IMG/VR virus record: IMGVR_UViG_3300047440_000580
Coordinates: 2,332 to 66,331 of that record
DNA: 64,000 nt
Direction: 5' to 3' (one strand)
Source of the DNA: a virus
Below are positions 27,121-48,298 of the stretch, piece by piece; the first letter of the stretch is position 1, and every line of letters begins with the position of its first letter. Below the pieces are notes generated by a model. The model did not search any database. It saw nothing but the letters and a program-made list of their open reading frames with translations, and was not told where the DNA came from. Position numbers and translations under genes: made by a program.

Positions 27121-28068
27121 CTAGGCTTTCGGGGGTGGCACAGGGGCGTCACAGTGCTCAGTCCCCAGGTATGGGCAACGTTCGTTCCAGTCGTCGATGC
27201 AGTTCTTGTGGTTCTTGATGAGGGTGCCGGCGTCGAACCTCTTCTTCAGCTGGGTGATGTCCTTGTTTAGAGACTCCACCGCCCTGCCGACGGAGACAGG
27301 ACCCGCTGAGATAGGGAGGAATTCGATCGGCTTCACCAGCTCCTTCGATCCCCTGGACACGGGACGTGGAGCCCTGAGGAGGAGGACGAAGGCGGTACGG
27401 ACGTTGGCGGGATCCAGCCCGTGCTTCTTGCAGAAGAAATGCTTGTAGAGCAGGATCTGGTAGTGGAGCTCGTGGTCCGTCTTCTTGTCCATCGGCCAGC
27501 CCCAGCCCGCGGTCTTGAAGTCGATGATGTACAGGATGGTCTCGCCGCGCTTCGACTTGGTCTTGACCACCATGTCGATGTAGCCCTTGAACTTGATGTC
27601 CAGACCGTCGGTCCGGGCGATGGGCTCCTCGAGCTTGTACTCGTTCCAGAGCACCTGGGCCGTGGCCAGCTCCTCACACTCGTGGAACCGTCTCAGGACC
27701 CGCTCACCGGCCTCCAGGAAGGTCTCGGGGCGGAGGGCGGACTTGTTCGGCTTCCCGTTCTCGTCGTGGGTCGGGGTCCAGAGACGGACCTGTTCCTTCT
27801 CCTGGTACTTGAGGACGTTGGACCAGAACAGCCACTCGAACTTCTTCTTGAAGTAGAAGACGGCGATCTCGATGTCGGTGATGATGGGGTTGCGAGCGTG
27901 GCAGAGCTCGATGGTCTCGTGCAGGGCTGTCCCGAAGTCCATGTAGATCCCATAGACCTTGTGGTACAGCTTGTCGATGGAGTTGAGCTTCCACCGCCAC
28001 TGGCAGTGGTTGCGAGCTTCCATCCAGCCCGAGTAGCTGATCTTCTTGGGGAACTCTACGTCAGACAG
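27121..28068 (-). CDS. PD-(D/E)XK nuclease, Cas4/AddB-like with 1+3 Cys pattern
   Basis: ISYS..C, GTALHE, KGYIDMV, IIDFKT, QILLY, C-terminal C..C..C; CTG start proposed behind GGAGG. Confidence 0.85.
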   Translation of the reverse strand: MSDVEFPKKISYSGWMEARNHCQWRWKLNSIDKLYHKVYGIYMDFGTALHETIELCHARNPIITDIEIAVFYFKKKFEWLFWSNVLKYQEKEQVRLWTPTHDENGKPNKSALRPETFLEAGERVLRRFHECEELATAQVLWNEYKLEEPIARTDGLDIKFKGYIDMVVKTKSKRGETILYIIDFKTAGWGWPMDKKTDHELHYQILLYKHFFCKKHGLDPANVRTAFVLLLRAPRPVSRGSKELVKPIEFLPISAGPVSVGRAVESLNKDITQLKKRFDAGTLIKNHKNCIDDWNERCPYLGTEHCDAPVPPPKA

Positions 28069-29282: not shown

Positions 29283-29288
29283 GTAAGA

Positions 29289-29400
29289 TGTGCCGTCGTG
29301 GAGTCGAACCACGAACCAGTGGCAGCAGTCCGTTCCTTTTCGCCTCCCAAGGCTACTTCAGGACAGAAAGTGGGATCTGTTGCTGGCCCGCCGGGCGGAC
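29289..29400 (-). ncRNA. tRNA-like RNA: T-arm plus long irregular helix, no anticodon arm
   Basis: CGTGG-TTCGACT-CCACG T-arm; CCAG/CAACAG pairs with CTGCTG/CTGG; imperfect acceptor. Confidence 0.45.
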
Positions 29401-29402
29401 TT

Positions 29403-29475
29403 TGGAGGCCATCCAGGGAGTCGAACCCTGCCCACGTGGTTTGCAATCACGTTTGCCCAGCCAGGACTGACGGCC
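29403..29475 (-). tRNA. tRNA-Cys(GCA)
   Basis: loop TT-GCA-AA; U73; CCA. Confidence 0.85.
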
Positions 29476-29489
29476 AATGTTGACGATGT

Positions 29490-29565: not shown

Positions 29566-29652
29566 TGGCGGAAAGTAGAGGAATCGAACCTCAGTCGTAA
29601 GACCCAAACGCTTAGCAAGCGCCGCTGGAGTTCCCAGGCCAGATTACTTTCC
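29566..29652 (-). tRNA. tRNA-Ser(GCT)
   Basis: loop TT-GCT-AA; long V-arm; G73; CCA. Confidence 0.9.
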
Positions 29653-29710
29653 AAACCTACCTGGCCTGCGAGCCAGGTGTCCTAGAAGTCGCAGCCCCTA
29701 GGATCTTCAG

Positions 29711-29778
29711 TCGCTCAGGTGAGAATCGAACTCACTGCGCTGGGCTTATGAGGCTCAGCTGGTTCCAAACCCAGAGCG
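29711..29778 (-). tRNA. tRNA-Met/Ile2(CAT)
   Basis: loop CT-CAT-AA; D-arm GGTT-TGG-AACC; no CCA. Confidence 0.7.
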
Positions 29779-29867
29779 GTTGCGGGGGTAGGAGTTGAAC
29801 CTACCATTGCAAGCGTTAGCTCGCGAGGGGTATGAGCCCTCATTGGCCACCTGGGCCTGTCCCCGCT
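29779..29867 (-). tRNA. initiator-type tRNA(CAT) with long variable arm
   Basis: A1:A72 mismatch, GGG/CCC anticodon stem, loop CT-CAT-AC, extra arm GCGAGC-TAAC-GCTTGC. Confidence 0.75.
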
Positions 29868-32492: not shown

Positions 32493-32939
32493 TCATTTCT
32501 TTGTAACGGCAATCGCATACATTTCGCCGTTTGGCTTACGCCACCTGCGGAGAAGGCCTCTGATATCTAGTACGTGGATACCATTTTCCCGCTTGTTCTT
32601 TTTCGTCCGCTCGGAGTCCACGATCAAGAACCTGTCCCCGATCGTGCAGGCGATCACCGCCCAGTGGGTGTCCCCGTCGCAGGCCATGATGAGAGGGCAT
32701 CCCTTGCCGAGGTACTTCTTCAGGGCCGCCTTGGCGTGGGTGGCCTTGGTCGTCTCGTACACCTCTGAAGTGTAGCCGAGGTGATCCAAGGCATTCAACA
32801 CCCCTGCCTCCGTGGTGCCGTCGTCGTCCGTGCCGGCGAGCTGGCGTAGACGGTGTTCCCCGACATTCTTCCCGAAGAGCTTCAGGACGTTCCGGATGGA
32901 CGCCGCCCCGCATGAGTTCTTCGTCTCCTGGAACCTCAT
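32493..32939 (-). CDS. C39-family cysteine peptidase
   Basis: QE..NSCGAAS, GTT, HWAVI, LIVDS catalytic pattern. Confidence 0.8.
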   Translation of the reverse strand: MRFQETKNSCGAASIRNVLKLFGKNVGEHRLRQLAGTDDDGTTEAGVLNALDHLGYTSEVYETTKATHAKAALKKYLGKGCPLIMACDGDTHWAVIACTIGDRFLIVDSERTKKNKRENGIHVLDIRGLLRRWRKPNGEMYAIAVTKK

Positions 32940-34708: not shown

Positions 34709-34786
34709 TGGTACCCCAGACGGGATTCGAACCCGCACATCCTGCGGTCTGAACGCAGTGACTCCTACCAATTGGTCTACCGGGGC
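34709..34786 (-). tRNA. tRNA-Leu(CAG), short variable loop
   Basis: loop TT-CAG-AC; CCA. Confidence 0.85.
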
Positions 34787-34868: not shown

Positions 34869-34945
34869 TGTGCTCTTGATGAGATTCGAACTCACACCTG
34901 TCAGCCTTCTCAGGACTGTGCCTCTACCAATTGGGCTACAAGAGC
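34869..34945 (-). tRNA. tRNA-Leu(GAG), short variable loop
   Basis: loop CT-GAG-AA. Confidence 0.85.
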
Positions 34946-35142: not shown

Positions 35143-35146
35143 AAAT

Positions 35147-35430
35147 TGAAGTGGAACGTAAGCGGGGTTCTGTTCAAGAACGATCATTCGTCTGGGATGA
35201 CTGTCACCAGTCACCTCTAGCTCTCAACCCGTCAGCATCGGCCGGACCAGCCCCTGACTGCTCGAGATTGCTCCAGATGGACTCCCCCGTTTCAGCCGAG
35301 CATTACCTCGGTTCGTCTCTGTTGAGAGTATCTCCAGGTCACCCCGGACCAGTCGTTAGCTGGCATCCTGTCCTATGGAGCCCCGACTTTCCTCTGGTTT
35401 GCGAAGCCAGCGATCGTTGCATCCACTTCA
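35147..35430 (-). ncRNA. rnpB: RNase P RNA, compact bacterial A-type
   Basis: P1 TGAAGTGGA/TCCACTTCA; CR-I GAGGAAAGTCGGGG; CR-V ACAGAACCCCGCTTA (P4 covaries); P2, P3, P5, P7-P9, P12, P15-P18 identifiable; P13/P14/P19 absent. Confidence 0.92.
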
Positions 35431-35773: not shown

Positions 35774-35776
35774 CAG

Positions 35777-35850
35777 TGCTTGCAGAGAGATTCGAACTCT
35801 CAGGAAGGTAGGTTTGAGCTACCTATGTCTACCTGTTGCATCATGCAAGC
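35777..35850 (-). tRNA. tRNA-Leu(CAA), short variable loop
   Basis: loop CT-CAA-AC; no CCA. Confidence 0.85.
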
Positions 35851-36083: not shown

Positions 36084-36169
36084 TGGTGCGCGGGCTGAGA
36101 GTCGAACTCAGCTGCCACGAGGGAACCGGTTTACAGCCGGCCCAGGGAACCGTCCCTGTCGTCCCGCGC
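36084..36169 (-). tRNA. tRNA-Tyr(GTA)
   Basis: loop CT-GTA-AA; long V region; CCA. Confidence 0.9.
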
Positions 36170-36310: not shown

Positions 36311-36401
36311 TGGCGGAAGAAGGAGGTCTCGATCCCCAGCCGACTCACGCCGACCACACCGCTTTCGAAACGGGTCCCAGTCCAAACCGGGTTCTTCTTC
36401 C
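36311..36401 (-). tRNA. tRNA-Ser(CGA)
   Basis: loop TT-CGA-AA; long V-arm; T-loop ATCGAGA; CCA. Confidence 0.85.
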
Positions 36402-36583: not shown

Positions 36584-36757
36584 TTATTCTCCGATCACCC
36601 CCTTCGCTTCATCATCCAGCGGCAGCAGTCTGTCCCGGTGCCGCGCCATCTTTCGTTTTCCGTCCGTGACGATGAAGAGTCCGGTCGAGGTCGGTCCACT
36701 GAGGATCTCGACCTCGATGTTCCCTTCATCATCCACCCCGAAGGTTAGGGCCTTCAT
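36584..36757 (-). CDS. small hypothetical protein
   Basis: MKALTFGVDDEG..., TGATG coupling with upstream gene. Confidence 0.55.
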   Translation of the reverse strand: MKALTFGVDDEGNIEVEILSGPTSTGLFIVTDGKRKMARHRDRLLPLDDEAKGVIGE

Positions 36758-37248
36758 CAGGACCTCGCGAGGTACCCCTTCACGATGTGGTCGGCAGCGT
36801 GGCTTGCAGCCCATGCGTCCGGCTTGATCACCGCGTTGAAGCCCTGCCCGAGAACCAGGCCCACCATCTCCTGCACGACATCCGAGGACTTGTACTGCGT
36901 GTCCGGGTTGGCGTCGATGTGGATGGTCAGCTTGTTGGCCTCCGGGATCTCCGAGTTGAGCTCCATGCCGAGCTCGACGGACATCCAGGCTTCCTTCAAG
37001 AGCCTCTCCCTCAGCGACCGGATACGAGTCATCCGCTCACGGCTGAAGAAGCACCGACCTCCCTTGCCCGGGGTGAGGATGATCACCACCGTGATGTACT
37101 CCGTCACGTTCCCCGCGTTCTGCGAGTCCGTGCCGATGACGAGTTCACGGTCCGGCGATTCAGCCATCAGGGCCCGTATCTCGGCCTTGAGGTCCACCGT
37201 CTTCTTTCCTACCATCGTCTTCCAGGTCTTCTCGATCATGGTCGCCAC
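36757..37248 (-). CDS. RNase H-like YkuK (DUF458) family protein
   Basis: LVIGTDSQ, RLLKEAWMS, IHIDAN, IKPDAWAASHAADH. Confidence 0.85.
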   Translation of the reverse strand: MATMIEKTWKTMVGKKTVDLKAEIRALMAESPDRELVIGTDSQNAGNVTEYITVVIILTPGKGGRCFFSRERMTRIRSLRERLLKEAWMSVELGMELNSEIPEANKLTIHIDANPDTQYKSSDVVQEMVGLVLGQGFNAVIKPDAWAASHAADHIVKGYLARS

Positions 37249-43135: not shown

Positions 43136-43328
43136 TGCTCGGATCGCGCGTCAAGTCCTGGACCTCGGGCAGTCCGAAGATGAGCGTCCCTTCGTCGAAG
43201 ATGTCCTTCTGGCGGAGCATGCGGATCCCGTCCTCCTTGAAGAGCTCGAGAGCCCGCTCGTACTCGGACTCGTCGAAGGAGGCGTAGCCGGACCCACTCT
43301 TGAAGACGACCTTGTAGCGCATGTTCAT
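43125..43328 (-). CDS. hypothetical protein
   Basis: MNMRYKVVF..., ATGA overlap with rtcB stop. Confidence 0.55.
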   Translation of the reverse strand: MNMRYKVVFKSGSGYASFDESEYERALELFKEDGIRMLRQKDIFDEGTLIFGLPEVQDLTRDPSNEN

Positions 43329-44488
43329 CCCTTCACGCAGAGCACTTGCTTCAGCTCTGCCACGATCTCCACCAGGTCGGACTGGTTCGCCATGACCTGA
43401 TCGATGTCCTTGTAGGCGCCCGGGATCTCGTCCAGGACCGCCTCGTCCTTCCGGCACTCGACGCCCGCCGTCTGGGCGATCATGTCGTCCAGCGTGAACG
43501 AACGCTTGGCCTTGCCGCGGCTCATCCGGCGGCCCGCCCCGTGGGACGCGCTGCAGAACGACTCCGGGTTACCGACTCCCCGAACGATGTAGGACTTGGT
43601 TCCCATCGATCCCGGGATGATGCCGAGCTCTCCGGCCTGGGCCGAGATCGCCCCCTTGCGGGTCACGATCAGGTCCTCACCGAAGTGGTTCTCCTCCGAC
43701 ACGTAGTTGTGGTGACAGAGGATCGGCTTCTCGAACTTCACCTTCCCGAAGTGCTCGATCATGATCTGCTTGTAGATTTCGAACATGGCCTTGCGGTTCA
43801 GGAACGCGTACTCTTGCGCCCAGTACAGGTCGTGCCGGTACGCCTCCATCTCCGGGGTCCCAGCCAGGAAGACCGCGAGGTCCTTGTCCGGGAGGCCCGT
43901 GTTGTGGGTCAGCTTCTGGGCGACCGCCATGTGGATCTCGGCCAGGGTCTTGCCGATGTTCCGGCTGCCCGAGTGGAGCATCATCCACACGTTTCCCTCG
44001 GTGTCCAGGCAGAGCTCGATGAAGTGGTTTCCGCCACCGAGCGTACCCACCTGCTTCCGGGCCTTGCCCTCGAGGTCACGGACCCCACGGCTCAGGTCGC
44101 CGAACTTCCTGAAGAGGTCGTTGGACGCCTTGACCACGGCGTTGGTGTGCTCGTTGAACCCGACCGGGATCCGCTCCTCGAGGTCGAGGCGGATGCGCTT
44201 CAGGCTGTCCGGCAGGTCGCTGGCCTTCAGGTCCGTCTTGATCGCTCCCATGCCGCAGCCGATGTCGACTCCCACGGCCGCCGGCGAGACCGCGCCCTTC
44301 ATGGCGATGACGGACCCGACGGTCGCGCCCTTGCCGAAGTGGACGTCGGCCATCGAGGCCACGTGGTGGAAGACCCACGGCAGGGCCGCGATGTTCTTCA
44401 GTTGGTCGAGGGCGACCGACTCTACCTCGTGGATCGGTGCCCAGAGGTGGATCGGTACGTTCTTCCCGTTCAGCAATGCGATTGACAT
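43325..44488 (-). CDS. rtcB: RtcB RNA ligase
   Basis: ADVHFGKGATVG, VGVDIGCG, GTLGGGNHFIE, HSGSR, HNY, SHGAGR, DEIPGAYK. Confidence 0.97.
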   Translation of the reverse strand: MSIALLNGKNVPIHLWAPIHEVESVALDQLKNIAALPWVFHHVASMADVHFGKGATVGSVIAMKGAVSPAAVGVDIGCGMGAIKTDLKASDLPDSLKRIRLDLEERIPVGFNEHTNAVVKASNDLFRKFGDLSRGVRDLEGKARKQVGTLGGGNHFIELCLDTEGNVWMMLHSGSRNIGKTLAEIHMAVAQKLTHNTGLPDKDLAVFLAGTPEMEAYRHDLYWAQEYAFLNRKAMFEIYKQIMIEHFGKVKFEKPILCHHNYVSEENHFGEDLIVTRKGAISAQAGELGIIPGSMGTKSYIVRGVGNPESFCSASHGAGRRMSRGKAKRSFTLDDMIAQTAGVECRKDEAVLDEIPGAYKDIDQVMANQSDLVEIVAELKQVLCVKG

Positions 44489-44541: not shown

Positions 44542-45375
44542 TTACTTCTGGCAGGACGGGCAAAAATACGTTGAACGACCGCGCAAGTCCTTCTTTTCGA
44601 TGAAACCTTCACAGCGGGCGCAGTCCTTGCGCCGGTAGCACCAGAGTCCCGAGTAGTCCAGCTTCCGCATCAGCGCCTCTCGGAGGACCAGCTGTCCGGA
44701 CTCGAAGAGCCGTTGCCACTCGTCAGTGGTCAGCTTCTTGACGATCTTGAACGGGTTGATCCCGGCGGCGTGGAGCGCCTCACAGGCATAGATGTTCCCG
44801 AAGCCGGCGACGGCCTCCTGGTCCATCATGGCGTGCTTGACCTCGACCTTCTGGTTGAAGAGCATGGCCGCGTCCAGGACGTTCCACTCCCGCTTGGACT
44901 TGTCGATGCTCATGTCCACATTCACCGTGTTGAACGCCTCGGGTCCCATGTTGGCGAAGGTCCCGATGTCCTCGATGCTCCGGCACGGCTGGTAGTAGCG
45001 GAAAGAGCCAAAGAGCCGGGCGTCGTGGAACCGGACGGTCTTCAGCTCCTTGTCACACAGGACGTCGAACTCCATGCGGACGTCGCTGTCCTTGGCCGTC
45101 CTGGCGCCCTCGACGTAGTCGAAGCACCACTCGTCGCCCTTGATGTCCCAGTAGCCGGACATGGCGTTGTGGGCCACGGCGATCCCGTTGCTGAGGTGGA
45201 ACGTCATGTACTTCCCGCGACGGCCCACCGTGTGGAGGGTCTGGCCCACCATGGCGGTCGCCTGGTCGTACCGGCCACCGGGACTGCGGAGCACCCGGAC
45301 AGCCTTGACTTCCCCGTCGATGGCCCGCTCCCGCAGGTAGGCCACCATCGTCTCTACTTCAGGAAGCTCGGGCAT
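44542..45375 (-). CDS. mutM: Fpg/MutM DNA glycosylase
   Basis: MPELPEVE, RRGKY, AMSG, DARLFG, GFGNIYACE, C4 zinc finger with RSTYFCPSCQ. Confidence 0.92.
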   Translation of the reverse strand: MPELPEVETMVAYLRERAIDGEVKAVRVLRSPGGRYDQATAMVGQTLHTVGRRGKYMTFHLSNGIAVAHNAMSGYWDIKGDEWCFDYVEGARTAKDSDVRMEFDVLCDKELKTVRFHDARLFGSFRYYQPCRSIEDIGTFANMGPEAFNTVNVDMSIDKSKREWNVLDAAMLFNQKVEVKHAMMDQEAVAGFGNIYACEALHAAGINPFKIVKKLTTDEWQRLFESGQLVLREALMRKLDYSGLWCYRRKDCARCEGFIEKKDLRGRSTYFCPSCQK

Positions 45376-45376
45376 G

Positions 45377-45958
45377 TCACTTCTTCTTTCGGATGAAGTT
45401 GGCGATCTCGATGCGCTTCCGCTCGGGGAGAGCGTCGACGAACAGCTTCCCGTCGAGGTGGTCGATCTCGTGCTGGAAGACCTGCGCCCAGAAACCCTTG
45501 TAGGTCTCCTCGACGTGCTTGACTTCCCAGCGTCCGTCGATCCTCAGCATCGTGCTGTACTTGACCTTGACGGCCCGGTGGCGACGGACCTTCATGCCGA
45601 ATCCCGGGAAGGAGAGGCACGCCTCGTCCAGCATGTCAGTCTCGGGAGACTTCTTCAGGATCTCCGGGTTGATGACGAACGGCGGGATCGCCATGACGAC
45701 CGGGTCGTCCTTCCCCATCCTGGCAGTGGTCGTCTGGTTCATGGCGACCACCCGCATGTCGACGCCGATCTGATTGGCCGCCAACGCGGCTCCGAGATCT
45801 GACTCTTCGAGTGTGTCTTCCATGTCCGTGAACAGCTTCTCGAGACAGATCAGGATGGTGCCCCCGATCTCCTGGTCTTCCAGGTCCTCGAGGACGACGG
45901 GCTTGCACTTCTGCCGGAGGATCTTGTCGGGGTACTTTATGATCGTTCTGACGGCCAT
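45377..45958 (-). CDS. def: peptide deformylase
   Basis: GAALAANQIG, EACLSFPG, QHEIDHLDG. Confidence 0.92.
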   Translation of the reverse strand: MAVRTIIKYPDKILRQKCKPVVLEDLEDQEIGGTILICLEKLFTDMEDTLEESDLGAALAANQIGVDMRVVAMNQTTTARMGKDDPVVMAIPPFVINPEILKKSPETDMLDEACLSFPGFGMKVRRHRAVKVKYSTMLRIDGRWEVKHVEETYKGFWAQVFQHEIDHLDGKLFVDALPERKRIEIANFIRKKK

Positions 45959-47011: not shown

Positions 47012-47787
47012 GGGGGCACCTCTTCTTTCTTGAGACTTTCCTGGAACTGTGAACGTCCGGCCAGCACGTCTCCGAGGCACTTGCTGCAGAAGTCGTGTGG
47101 CATGATGTCGATCCCTGGCTTCCCGTCGAGGGAGGGTCCGATGTTCATGACACAGGGGATGACCTCGGTCTTGGTGTCGTGGTGGGTGAGCCCCAGCGTA
47201 TGCCCGACCTCGTGGACGACCAGCTTCACCAGCCGGCTCCACGGGATGTGAGTGCTCCCGAGCTTCCCGATCCCGAACGTGGAGACCACGCAGACGGGGA
47301 GCGCCATGCTGCCGTAGCCGTAGACCCAGATGTTGTTCTTCTGGGCGGCGTACAGCTCCTGGTCCGTGACCATCACCACCCGGCCGTGCTTGAGAAACTC
47401 GGCGCCCTTCTCCAGGACCGCCCCGGCTTCCGCCCTCCTGCGGTTGGGATCGTAGACTTCCGGCCAGAGGGTGCGACGACGCAGGACCTTCACGGGGACT
47501 CCGAAGATGTCCCAGGCGATCCGGCAGATGACGTCGATGGTGAGGACAGACACTTCCCCGATGGGGACGATGACGATGGCCGGTCCCTTCCCCTGCGCCA
47601 TGTCCAGCATGCGTGGCGAGAATCGGAGGGAGGCTTCCTCGACAAACCCCTTGGGGATCCCACGGCCGGCACGCATGAACTCGTGCAAGGCCAGGCGACC
47701 AAGCAGGGCGGTGTGTTCGTAGAAAGAATCGGCTGAGTCTGAGCCGACATCTACACAGATGCTGAGGCCGAGGTCTCGCAAGCGCAT
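46987..47787 (-). CDS. archaemetzincin-like (M54) zinc metalloprotease
   Basis: VMVTDQELY, VYG, VVST, KLVVHEVGHTLGLTHH, CVMN. Confidence 0.8.
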   Translation of the reverse strand: MRLRDLGLSICVDVGSDSADSFYEHTALLGRLALHEFMRAGRGIPKGFVEEASLRFSPRMLDMAQGKGPAIVIVPIGEVSVLTIDVICRIAWDIFGVPVKVLRRRTLWPEVYDPNRRRAEAGAVLEKGAEFLKHGRVVMVTDQELYAAQKNNIWVYGYGSMALPVCVVSTFGIGKLGSTHIPWSRLVKLVVHEVGHTLGLTHHDTKTEVIPCVMNIGPSLDGKPGIDIMPHDFCSKCLGDVLAGRSQFQESLKKEEVPPCSVASSI

Positions 47788-47800
47788 CTCCGAAATTTTC

Positions 47801-48298
47801 CTAGGCTCCTGTCGCCTGCTCGTTCTCTGGGATGTACGGCGCGATCTTCTCGACGACGGTGGCCAGCTTGGCGGCGATCTCGGTGGTGGAAGCCCCGTTG
47901 GCCGCCAGCTCGTGGATGATGCCGATCATGCCGAGCGCCCAGGTCATCACGGCCTGGGCCTTTCCCACCTGCTGGAGGATGTCGGAGTTCAGCCAGCCAT
48001 AGGACCAGGAGGCGGACTCATCCGAGTCCGGATCGTGGGGATTGTCTTCCAACGTGGCCCCGCGGTTGGCTGCCTCACGACCGCTCTTCTCGGCCTCGAG
48101 GATCTTCTCTTGGACTCGGACCTGCTCGAGGTAGAGCTCGATCTTCCCCTCGAGCAGGAGGTTCTTGTCGGACAGCTCCTGGTTCTTGTTCCTGAGGAGC
48201 TGGACCTCCTGCACGATCTTCTCGGCGCAGGTGACACATGTCCCAATCTTCTGCTCCATCCCGGTGACGAGAGGAGCTCCGCAGGTGAGGCACGGCAT
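47801..48298 (-). CDS. Zn-ribbon/coiled-coil protein with Rmf-like segment
   Basis: C..C...C..C, coiled coil, GREAANRG...NPH....SWSYGW. Confidence 0.55.
   Translation of the reverse strand: MPCLTCGAPLVTGMEQKIGTCVTCAEKIVQEVQLLRNKNQELSDKNLLLEGKIELYLEQVRVQEKILEAEKSGREAANRGATLEDNPHDPDSDESASWSYGWLNSDILQQVGKAQAVMTWALGMIGIIHELAANGASTTEIAAKLATVVEKIAPYIPENEQATGA

Follow-up and report, generated by a model that had tools for sequence, protein, structure and literature searches.

The textbook initiator tRNA is a class I molecule with a short variable loop. An extra base-paired arm is reserved in textbooks for the tRNAs of Leu, Ser and Tyr. Natural tRNAs that combine a long arm with an anticodon unexpected for class II are the nematode nev-tRNAs (PMC3333845) and the bacterial allo-tRNAs (PMC5389517). 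Both are elongator tRNAs with Leu or Ser identity. Phage tRNA copies that differ from the host version and escape defence have also been described (e.g. PMC11555353); in these cases the differences are small and concern elongator tRNAs. The literature searched contained no account of an initiator tRNA with a long variable arm, and neither a review of non-canonical tRNAs (PMC7609411) nor the huge-phage paper (PMC7162821) mentions one.

The tRNA described in this report lies in a 64,000-nt stretch of virus DNA, referred to here as the window, to which all coordinates apply unless another locus is named. The source record is a 73.6-kb IMG/VR virus contig with a CheckV completeness estimate of 36%. 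The window has a G+C content of ~60% and encodes baseplate proteins, a helicase, a large glycosyltransferase cluster and RtcB. Unlike the nev-tRNAs and allo-tRNAs, the tRNA has initiator hallmarks, and its acceptor/T branch is 7/5 whereas those of the allo-tRNAs are 8/4 or 9/3. With the defence-escaping phage tRNAs it shares that a phage copy differs from the host version, here in a genome that encodes RtcB; the difference, however, consists in a whole arm on an initiator without a known cognate nuclease. New are a divergent member of a long-arm class with A1·A72, C38 and an odd D arm, a series of orthologs with two body designs in one slot, an abutting CAU tRNA with a reduced D arm and a proposed link of the initiator to a phage peptide deformylase.

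Sequence and fold of the tRNA

ARAGORN finds 35 tRNA genes between 29208 and 37344 of the window, all on the minus strand, and among them a tRNA-Met(CAT) at 29778-29867. The first-pass annotation had read this gene as a tRNA(CAU) with an A1:A72 mismatch, three G-C pairs, the loop CU-CAU-AC and a 6-bp extra arm, all of which are confirmed by ARAGORN, sequence and fold. The tRNA, its parts and the adjoining gene are as follows.

29780-29867 (-), initiator-type tRNA(CAU) with a long variable arm, 88 nt from A1 (29867) to A73 (29780); ARAGORN, sequence, fold and ortholog covariation
29861-29867 (-), 5' strand of the acceptor stem, AGCGGGG, with A1 opposite A72 and the pairs G2:C71, C3:G70 and G4:C69; sequence and fold, A1·A72 kept in five orthologs
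29842-29860 (-), atypical D arm consisting of ACA, a 4-bp stem GGCC/GGCC with the 5-nt loop CAGGU (which has GG), and AAU; fold
29825-29841 (-), anticodon arm GAGGG-CUCAUAC-CCCUC with CAU at 29832-29834; sequence and fold
29805-29824 (-), variable region of 20 nt with the 6-bp stem GCGAGC/GCUUGC, the loop UAAC and the 3' tail AAUG; fold
29788-29804 (-), T arm GUAGG-UUCAACU-CCUAC with a canonical T loop; fold and a compensatory A:U to G:C change in the related locus L284
29780-29787 (-), 3' strand of the acceptor stem, CCCCGCA, and discriminator A73; sequence
29711-29778 (-), second CAU tRNA, elongator type, 68 nt, with C1:G72 and without GGG/CCC; fold and ortholog covariation

The predicted fold is a cloverleaf with a fifth helix. 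Its minimum free energy is -42.2 kcal/mol compared to -29.7 ± 3.2 for shuffled sequences (z = -3.9), and none of 200 shuffles is as stable. The pairs G29:C41, G30:C40 and G31:C39 adjoin the 7-nt anticodon loop, in which CAU follows U33 and position 38 is C. The D stem is offset by one base, and the same atypical layout of the D arm is present in the loci L284 and L002. The CCA end is incomplete, since A73 is followed by a single C (29779) before the next tRNA begins. No other initiator-type tRNA was found in the 73.6-kb contig.

The resemblance to bacterial tRNA-fMet (the E. coli metZWV/metY type) includes the anticodon CAU, the unpaired 1:72 position, G2:C71, C3:G70, G4:C69, A73, the three G:C pairs next to the anticodon loop and the 7/5 branch. 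The T loop UUCAACU is close to UUCAAAU of tRNA-fMet. Apart from position 1, the acceptor stem matches that of E. coli tRNA-fMet. Position 38 of initiator tRNAs is usually A. The tRNA has general features of an initiator (CAU in a 7-nt loop, no Watson-Crick pair at 1:72, three G:C pairs, G2:C71, C3:G70 and A73), whereas A11:U24 in the D stem and a class I body with a variable loop of 4-5 nt are absent. In detail, tRNA-fMet has C1·A72 instead of A1·A72 and a variable region of 5 nt instead of 20 nt with a 6-bp hairpin. The phage tRNA also differs in that it lacks A11:U24 and U8, has a D loop of 5 nt, carries C38 in place of A38 and does not encode CCA.

The base-paired arm between anticodon and T arms is shared with class II tRNAs (bacterial Leu, Ser and Tyr) and tRNA-Sec. 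The variable region exceeds 10 nt and folds as a stem-loop, as in class II, but neither an anticodon for Leu, Ser or Tyr nor an arm layout typical of these isotypes is present. The D stem has 4 bp, and the identity elements for Ser, Leu and Tyr are absent except for A73. The unpaired bases on the 5' and 3' sides of the arm are mostly (1,1) in phage tRNA-Ser, (1,2) in tRNA-Leu and (1,3) in tRNA-Tyr. The arm described here has (0,4), whereas the wider long-arm class introduced below has mostly (1,3), i.e. one unpaired base 5' and three 3', as in phage tRNA-Tyr. The arm is class II-like as a hairpin, yet by its flanks not Ser-type.

Two assignments to known long-arm families were considered and rejected. 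The gene scores below the threshold of the Rfam tRNA model, and its best Rfam match is tRNA-Sec (RF01852) with 28.5 bits, below the cut-off of 47; together with the 7/5 branch, which is not 8/5, 8/4 or 9/3, this rejects a tRNA-Sec or allo-tRNA. A Ser-type arm is rejected by the (0,4) layout, as Ser tRNAs are mostly (1,1).

The adjoining tRNA at 29711-29778 was missed by both ARAGORN and Rfam. Its D region is reduced (~14 nt separate the acceptor stem from the anticodon stem), and the latter stem contains an A·C mismatch. It is kept in five related phages, where two-sided changes are seen in 12 of its 19 pairs. It could be a tRNA-Met or a tRNA-Ile2. An elongator-type CAU tRNA next to an initiator-type one fits a division of labour. 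Furthermore, a cut by RNase P at the 5' end of this tRNA would at the same time set the 3' end of the initiator.

Orthologs and the wider phage class

Relatives were found by a protein search with the neighbouring PD-(D/E)XK nuclease (27121-28023) and by contig look-ups in metagenomes; two scans for related loci, each with a single neighbouring protein, gave no relatives. An identical tRNA is present on contigs from other samples that carry an identical nuclease (L279, L283). The phage is present in soil samples, for example JGI 3300046780. In L284 and L285, the nuclease is 82% identical and an ortholog occupies the same slot after tRNA-Thr(GGU). Compared to the L284 ortholog, 12 of 90 positions are substituted, whereas all 26 predicted pairs remain intact. 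Within the extra arm, a G:U pair is replaced by C:G (two-sided) and an A:U pair by G:U (one-sided, compensating). The arm loop is rewritten from UAAC to GGAA, with three of four bases changed, and three bases of the D loop differ as well. Substitutions without a broken pair and compensating changes in the arm are the pattern expected of a helix under selection. By this comparison the tRNA is evidently a maintained gene. A pseudogene was considered and rejected, since no pair is broken across the 12 substitutions.

More distant relatives, ranked by identity of the neighbouring protein, are L286 (79%), L291 (49%) and L290 (47%). Their initiator-type tRNAs, none of which is called by ARAGORN, are in the same slot.

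L286:8200-8289, initiator-type tRNA of a sister phage
L291:124-202, initiator-type tRNA of a sister phage
L290:8784-8862, initiator-type tRNA of a sister phage

These three tRNAs begin with AGC(G/A)GCU and retain A1·A72, GGG/CCC, CAU and A73. Across all five orthologs in the slot after tRNA-Thr(GGU), A1·A72, GC(G/A)G at positions 2-5, GGG/CCC, CAU and A73 are kept. The body, on the other hand, differs: the tRNAs of L286, L290 and L291 have a variable loop of 9-11 nt without a hairpin, a T loop of CGCACAU or UGCGAGU and a D loop without GG. Positions 32, 37 and 38 of the anticodon loop vary in this series (CUCAUAC, UUCAUAA, UUCAUGG). Judged from the alignments, the determinants of Met charging, formylation and P-site binding are fixed, while elbow and core exist in two predicted designs within one phage clade. 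This series is a natural experiment, with one slot, the same identity elements and two body designs. The retention of the hallmarks in a rebuilt body suggests a pressure to look unlike the host initiator tRNA.

Long-arm initiator-type tRNAs are not restricted to this clade. The pattern GGGCTCATANCCC-N(18-36)-GGTTCRANTCC, scanned in IMG/VR and in prokaryote genomes, matches 104 IMG/VR stretches, which reduce to 84 distinct sequences and ~55 clusters at 80% identity. The tRNA of the window forms its own cluster at this identity. It shows the features that define the class, namely GGG-CUCAUAN-CCC, a variable region of 13-27 nt with a hairpin, a weak or absent 1:72 pair and location in phage DNA. 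Among the 84 sequences, these features are distributed as follows.

1:72 mismatch: 56/84
1:72 weak pair (A:U or G:U): 25/84
1:72 G:C pair: 3/84
GCG at positions 2-4: 57/84
A73: 68/84
A11:U24: 35/84
U8: 70/84

The variable regions of the class (13-27 nt) have a mean folding energy of -2.76 kcal/mol compared to -0.77 kcal/mol in shuffles (sd 0.12), and the arms often end in GNRA loops. Sequence and length of the arm differ widely between clusters. An alignment of a seven-member cluster has covariation across the whole cloverleaf. A pooled pairwise count over the class (109 two-sided, 45 one-sided and 115 broken) mixes arms that are out of register and is not relied on.

In prokaryotes, searched with one genome per species (185,579 species), the pattern has only 56 matches. 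Archaeal initiators with intron-like inserts and duplication artefacts account for many of these; the remainder, located on MAG contigs, are similar to the viral types. The long-arm class is phage-enriched and nearly confined to phages. An archaeal-style intron was rejected as an account of the arm, since the cellular matches of this kind are archaeal, have A1:U72 and form no tidy hairpin. Among the matches listed, 27 of 80 long-arm tRNAs are on contigs of at least 100 kb compared to 8 of 80 with canonical length (Fisher p = 0.0005). A canonical-length initiator-type tRNA is also present in only 3 of 105 long-arm loci, within the stretch fetched for each.

Searches by similarity recovered few relatives. 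Megablast of the tRNA array against cultured phages gave no match, and blastn of the tRNA itself gave only short matches to the T arm. With three class representatives, blastn matched only a 735-kb uncultured huge phage (LR756501), which has a long-arm and a canonical-length form in tandem. The cultured phage crAss001, which infects Bacteroides intestinalis, has a CAU tRNA of 88 nt (MH675552, 5720-5807) with C1·A72 and a 5-bp arm. With only two G:C pairs in its stem, this gene escaped an exact search with GGGCTCATANCCC and was found by allowing two mismatches. crAss001 is thus a cultured system that carries a class member.

The phage-restricted class breaks the short-loop rule yet keeps the determinants by which an initiator is charged, formylated and selected for the P site. 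In long-arm loci, ~10% of the tRNAs are enlarged forms of other class I isotypes, compared to ~3% in control loci, so that the initiator arm is the most frequent case of a wider tendency. Separately, L018:3002-3087 holds an 86-nt CAU tRNA with a long variable arm and a non-initiator anticodon stem (CCGCC/GGCGG type); it adjoins both a long-arm and a canonical initiator-type tRNA.

Proposed initiator pathway and role of the arm

The preferred reading, with a rough probability of 0.6, is that the tRNA is a working phage initiator whose arm most likely sets it apart from the initiator of the host. Three further genes of the window bear on this reading.

35143-35430 (-), compact phage-encoded RNase P RNA within the tRNA array; Rfam RF00010, 166.9 bits
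43325-44488 (-), RtcB RNA ligase; PF01139, 417.6 bits, phrog_1075
45377-45958 (-), peptide deformylase ORF; PF01327, 126.6 bits, at contig 47747-48280, which is window 45416-45949

The first-pass annotation had called the tRNA a modified initiator. This is supported by the five orthologs, in which the acceptor-end and anticodon-stem hallmarks of tRNA-fMet are kept while the body changes, and further by the separate elongator-type CAU tRNA next to it and the phage peptide deformylase. A phage deformylase points to proteins initiated with fMet and makes sense if phage proteins start with it. Most likely, judging by its determinants, the tRNA is a working, formylatable initiator.

In the proposed pathway, the tRNA would be transcribed within the minus-strand array of more than 35 tRNA genes. 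RNase P, with either the host's or the phage's own RNA, would cut its 5' end; the phage RNase P RNA is likely the 5' processing enzyme. Cleavage at the abutting downstream tRNA would free the 3' end, which a CCA-adding enzyme would complete. The host MetRS, a class I synthetase, would charge the tRNA through CAU and A73. Synthetases of class I reach the acceptor stem from its minor groove, with the variable region facing the solvent. G2:C71 and C3:G70 are determinants of the formyltransferase according to work in E. coli. Formylation by the host formyltransferase is expected from the unpaired 1:72 position and the pairs G2:C71, C3:G70 and G4:C69, as in E. coli tRNA-fMet. The three G:C pairs would allow its acceptance in the 30S P site. 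In elongation, class II tRNAs are bound in the P site of the ribosome. The products would then be processed by the phage deformylase.

Some features count against initiator function. The 1:72 mismatch is A1·A72 and not the canonical C1·A72, and A11:U24, a minor determinant of formylation and initiation in E. coli, is absent. The absence of U8 and the unusual D arm could impair folding and recognition by enzymes.

If tRNAs of this class work, a bulky initiator arm must be accommodated by MetRS, formyltransferase, IF2/IF3 and the 30S P site. Such tRNAs would also be natural scaffolds for orthogonal initiator tRNAs, and would point to the initiator tRNA as a molecule contested by phages and bacterial defences.

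The 6-bp arm is probably a selected structural add-on to the tRNA body and not part of Met or initiator identity. It would make the phage initiator look different from the host tRNA-fMet. Factors that read the shape of tRNA-fMet, for example toxins or nucleases of the host or a tRNA turnover activity induced by the phage, would then fail on it. The most likely role of the arm is to tell the phage initiator from that of the host; this is ranked above a handle for a partner and above a neutral or buttressing insertion. It is favored by the fixed identity elements in a redesigned body, the essentially phage-only distribution of the class and the presence of RtcB. RtcB implies a capacity for tRNA repair and points to tRNA cleavage and repair.

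A stronger form of this reading is put forward only tentatively. According to it, the clade's private initiator body (the arm or the rebuilt T and D loops, together with C38) is immune to an activity that inactivates the host tRNA-fMet, in an arms race over the initiator. This activity could be an abortive-infection toxin of the host or a shut-off factor of the phage itself. After infection, initiation would run mainly on the phage tRNA, and the arms race would have left its mark in a body redesigned repeatedly while the identity elements stayed fixed.

The alternative that survives best, although unlikely, assigns the arm no part in a conflict. It would be a structural buttress for a core with a degenerated D arm or a nearly neutral insertion under relaxed constraint. 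The atypical D arm of the tRNA is in line with a buttress, and the sister phages manage without an arm. Moreover, given the enlarged other isotypes (~10%) and several array tRNAs with inserts, the arm may reflect a general looseness of phage tRNA bodies. Yet in most of the 84 class members the D arm is normal (U8 in 70/84, A11:U24 in 35/84), so that a compensation for degenerate D arms does not hold across the class. The upkeep of the arm helix by compensatory changes and the near confinement of the class to phages also speak against this alternative.

Quite unlikely is an arm that serves as a handle for a phage partner. This partner would be an initiation factor, a formyltransferase, a MetRS or a ribosomal protein with its gene in the 64% of the genome that is missing, and would open a private initiation channel, e.g. 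for mRNAs without a Shine-Dalgarno (SD) sequence or leaderless mRNAs. Huge phages do encode IF1, IF3, S1 and S21 (PMC7162821), and the long-arm class favors very large phages. In most loci the long-arm tRNA is the sole initiator-type tRNA (only 3/105 also have a canonical-length one), and SD-like motifs are barely enriched in the window. The 73.6-kb fragment contains no Fmt, MetRS, IF3 or CCA-adding enzyme, an absence that shows little as the fragment is 36% of the genome. Sister phages without the arm keep the initiator hallmarks, which is hard to reconcile with a handle that co-evolved with a protein. The wide differences in arm sequence and length between clusters point in the same direction.

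Very improbable is a tRNA that is no initiator at all, i.e. a class II tRNA(CAU) charged by LeuRS, SerRS or TyrRS in the manner of the nev-tRNAs and allo-tRNAs, an elongator tRNA-Met or a decaying pseudogene: the long arm with A73 (as in Leu and Tyr tRNAs), the weak tRNA-Sec match and the leucylation of V-arm nev-tRNAs with unexpected anticodons (PMC3333845) are outweighed by the 7/5 branch (not 8/4 or 9/3), the Sec match below the cut-off (28.5 against 47), flanks of (0,4) where phage Ser tRNAs have mostly (1,1) and Leu tRNAs mostly (1,2), the unpaired 1:72 position and GGG/CCC conserved in the orthologs, the adjacent elongator-type CAU tRNA and the absence of broken pairs between orthologs. 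The separate CAU tRNA is of elongator type. An unpaired 1:72 position and GGG/CCC pairs disfavor use by EF-Tu.

Two specific roles had been suggested for the modified initiator, resistance to VapC-type cleavage and a bias towards leaderless mRNAs of the phage. As applied to this tRNA, both are unsupported speculation. Enteric VapC cuts tRNA-fMet between A38 and C39 (PMC4105405; PMC5175351). If escape of the VapC type matters, C38 is a better candidate than the arm. C38, which the tRNA of the window has, is rare in initiator-like tRNAs of phages (0/92 with canonical length, 3/84 with a long arm). As to leaderless mRNAs, a crude count in the window finds SD-like motifs in front of 20 of 77 crude ORFs, compared to a background of 17.7%. 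This indicates weak use of SD sequences at most; it fits non-SD initiation and is silent on leaderless mRNAs or the arm. Leaderless transcripts cannot be deduced from an SD count, since this requires transcription start sites.

Other features of the tRNA array

CCA is encoded in 30 of the 35 array tRNAs, and enlarged tRNAs for His, Lys and Ile are also present. All three tRNA-Leu genes of the array (34709-34786, 34870-34945 and 35776-35850, all on the minus strand) are only 75-78 nt long and lack the long variable arm. To our knowledge, bacterial tRNA-Leu always has a long variable arm. Short tRNA-Leu genes (<82 nt) are frequent in other phage loci (18/86 and 19/34).

Three class II tRNAs of the array were missed by ARAGORN (29569-29653, 36088-36169 and 36315-36401, minus strand). 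Their anticodons, read by eye from the folds, correspond to Ser(GCU), Tyr(GUA) and Ser(CGA), respectively, and they give weak matches to the tRNA-Sec model with 30.4, 43.5 and 28.2 bits. A 207-nt gap (29283-29489, minus strand) extends from tRNA-Thr(CGU) to tRNA-Glu and contains two T-arm-like hairpins (GGGUUCGACUCCC and GUGGUUCGACUCCAC). One candidate in the gap resembles tRNA-Cys(GCA) and has an anticodon arm of irregular form, and relatives have a tRNA-Cys at the same position.

The peptide deformylase gene adjoins genes for an Fpg-type glycosylase (44542-45375) and RtcB (43325-44488). Two protein genes lie inside the tRNA array (32493-32939 and 36757-37248, minus strand) and encode a protein with a C39-family peptidase domain and a PF04308 RNaseH-like protein. 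The C39-family and PF04308 genes are retained inside the tRNA arrays of the related phages L284, L286, L289 and L290. The array of L290, whose neighboring protein is 47% identical, additionally contains a gene for a TROVE/Ro60-like protein (L290:2721-4325, weak Pfam match).
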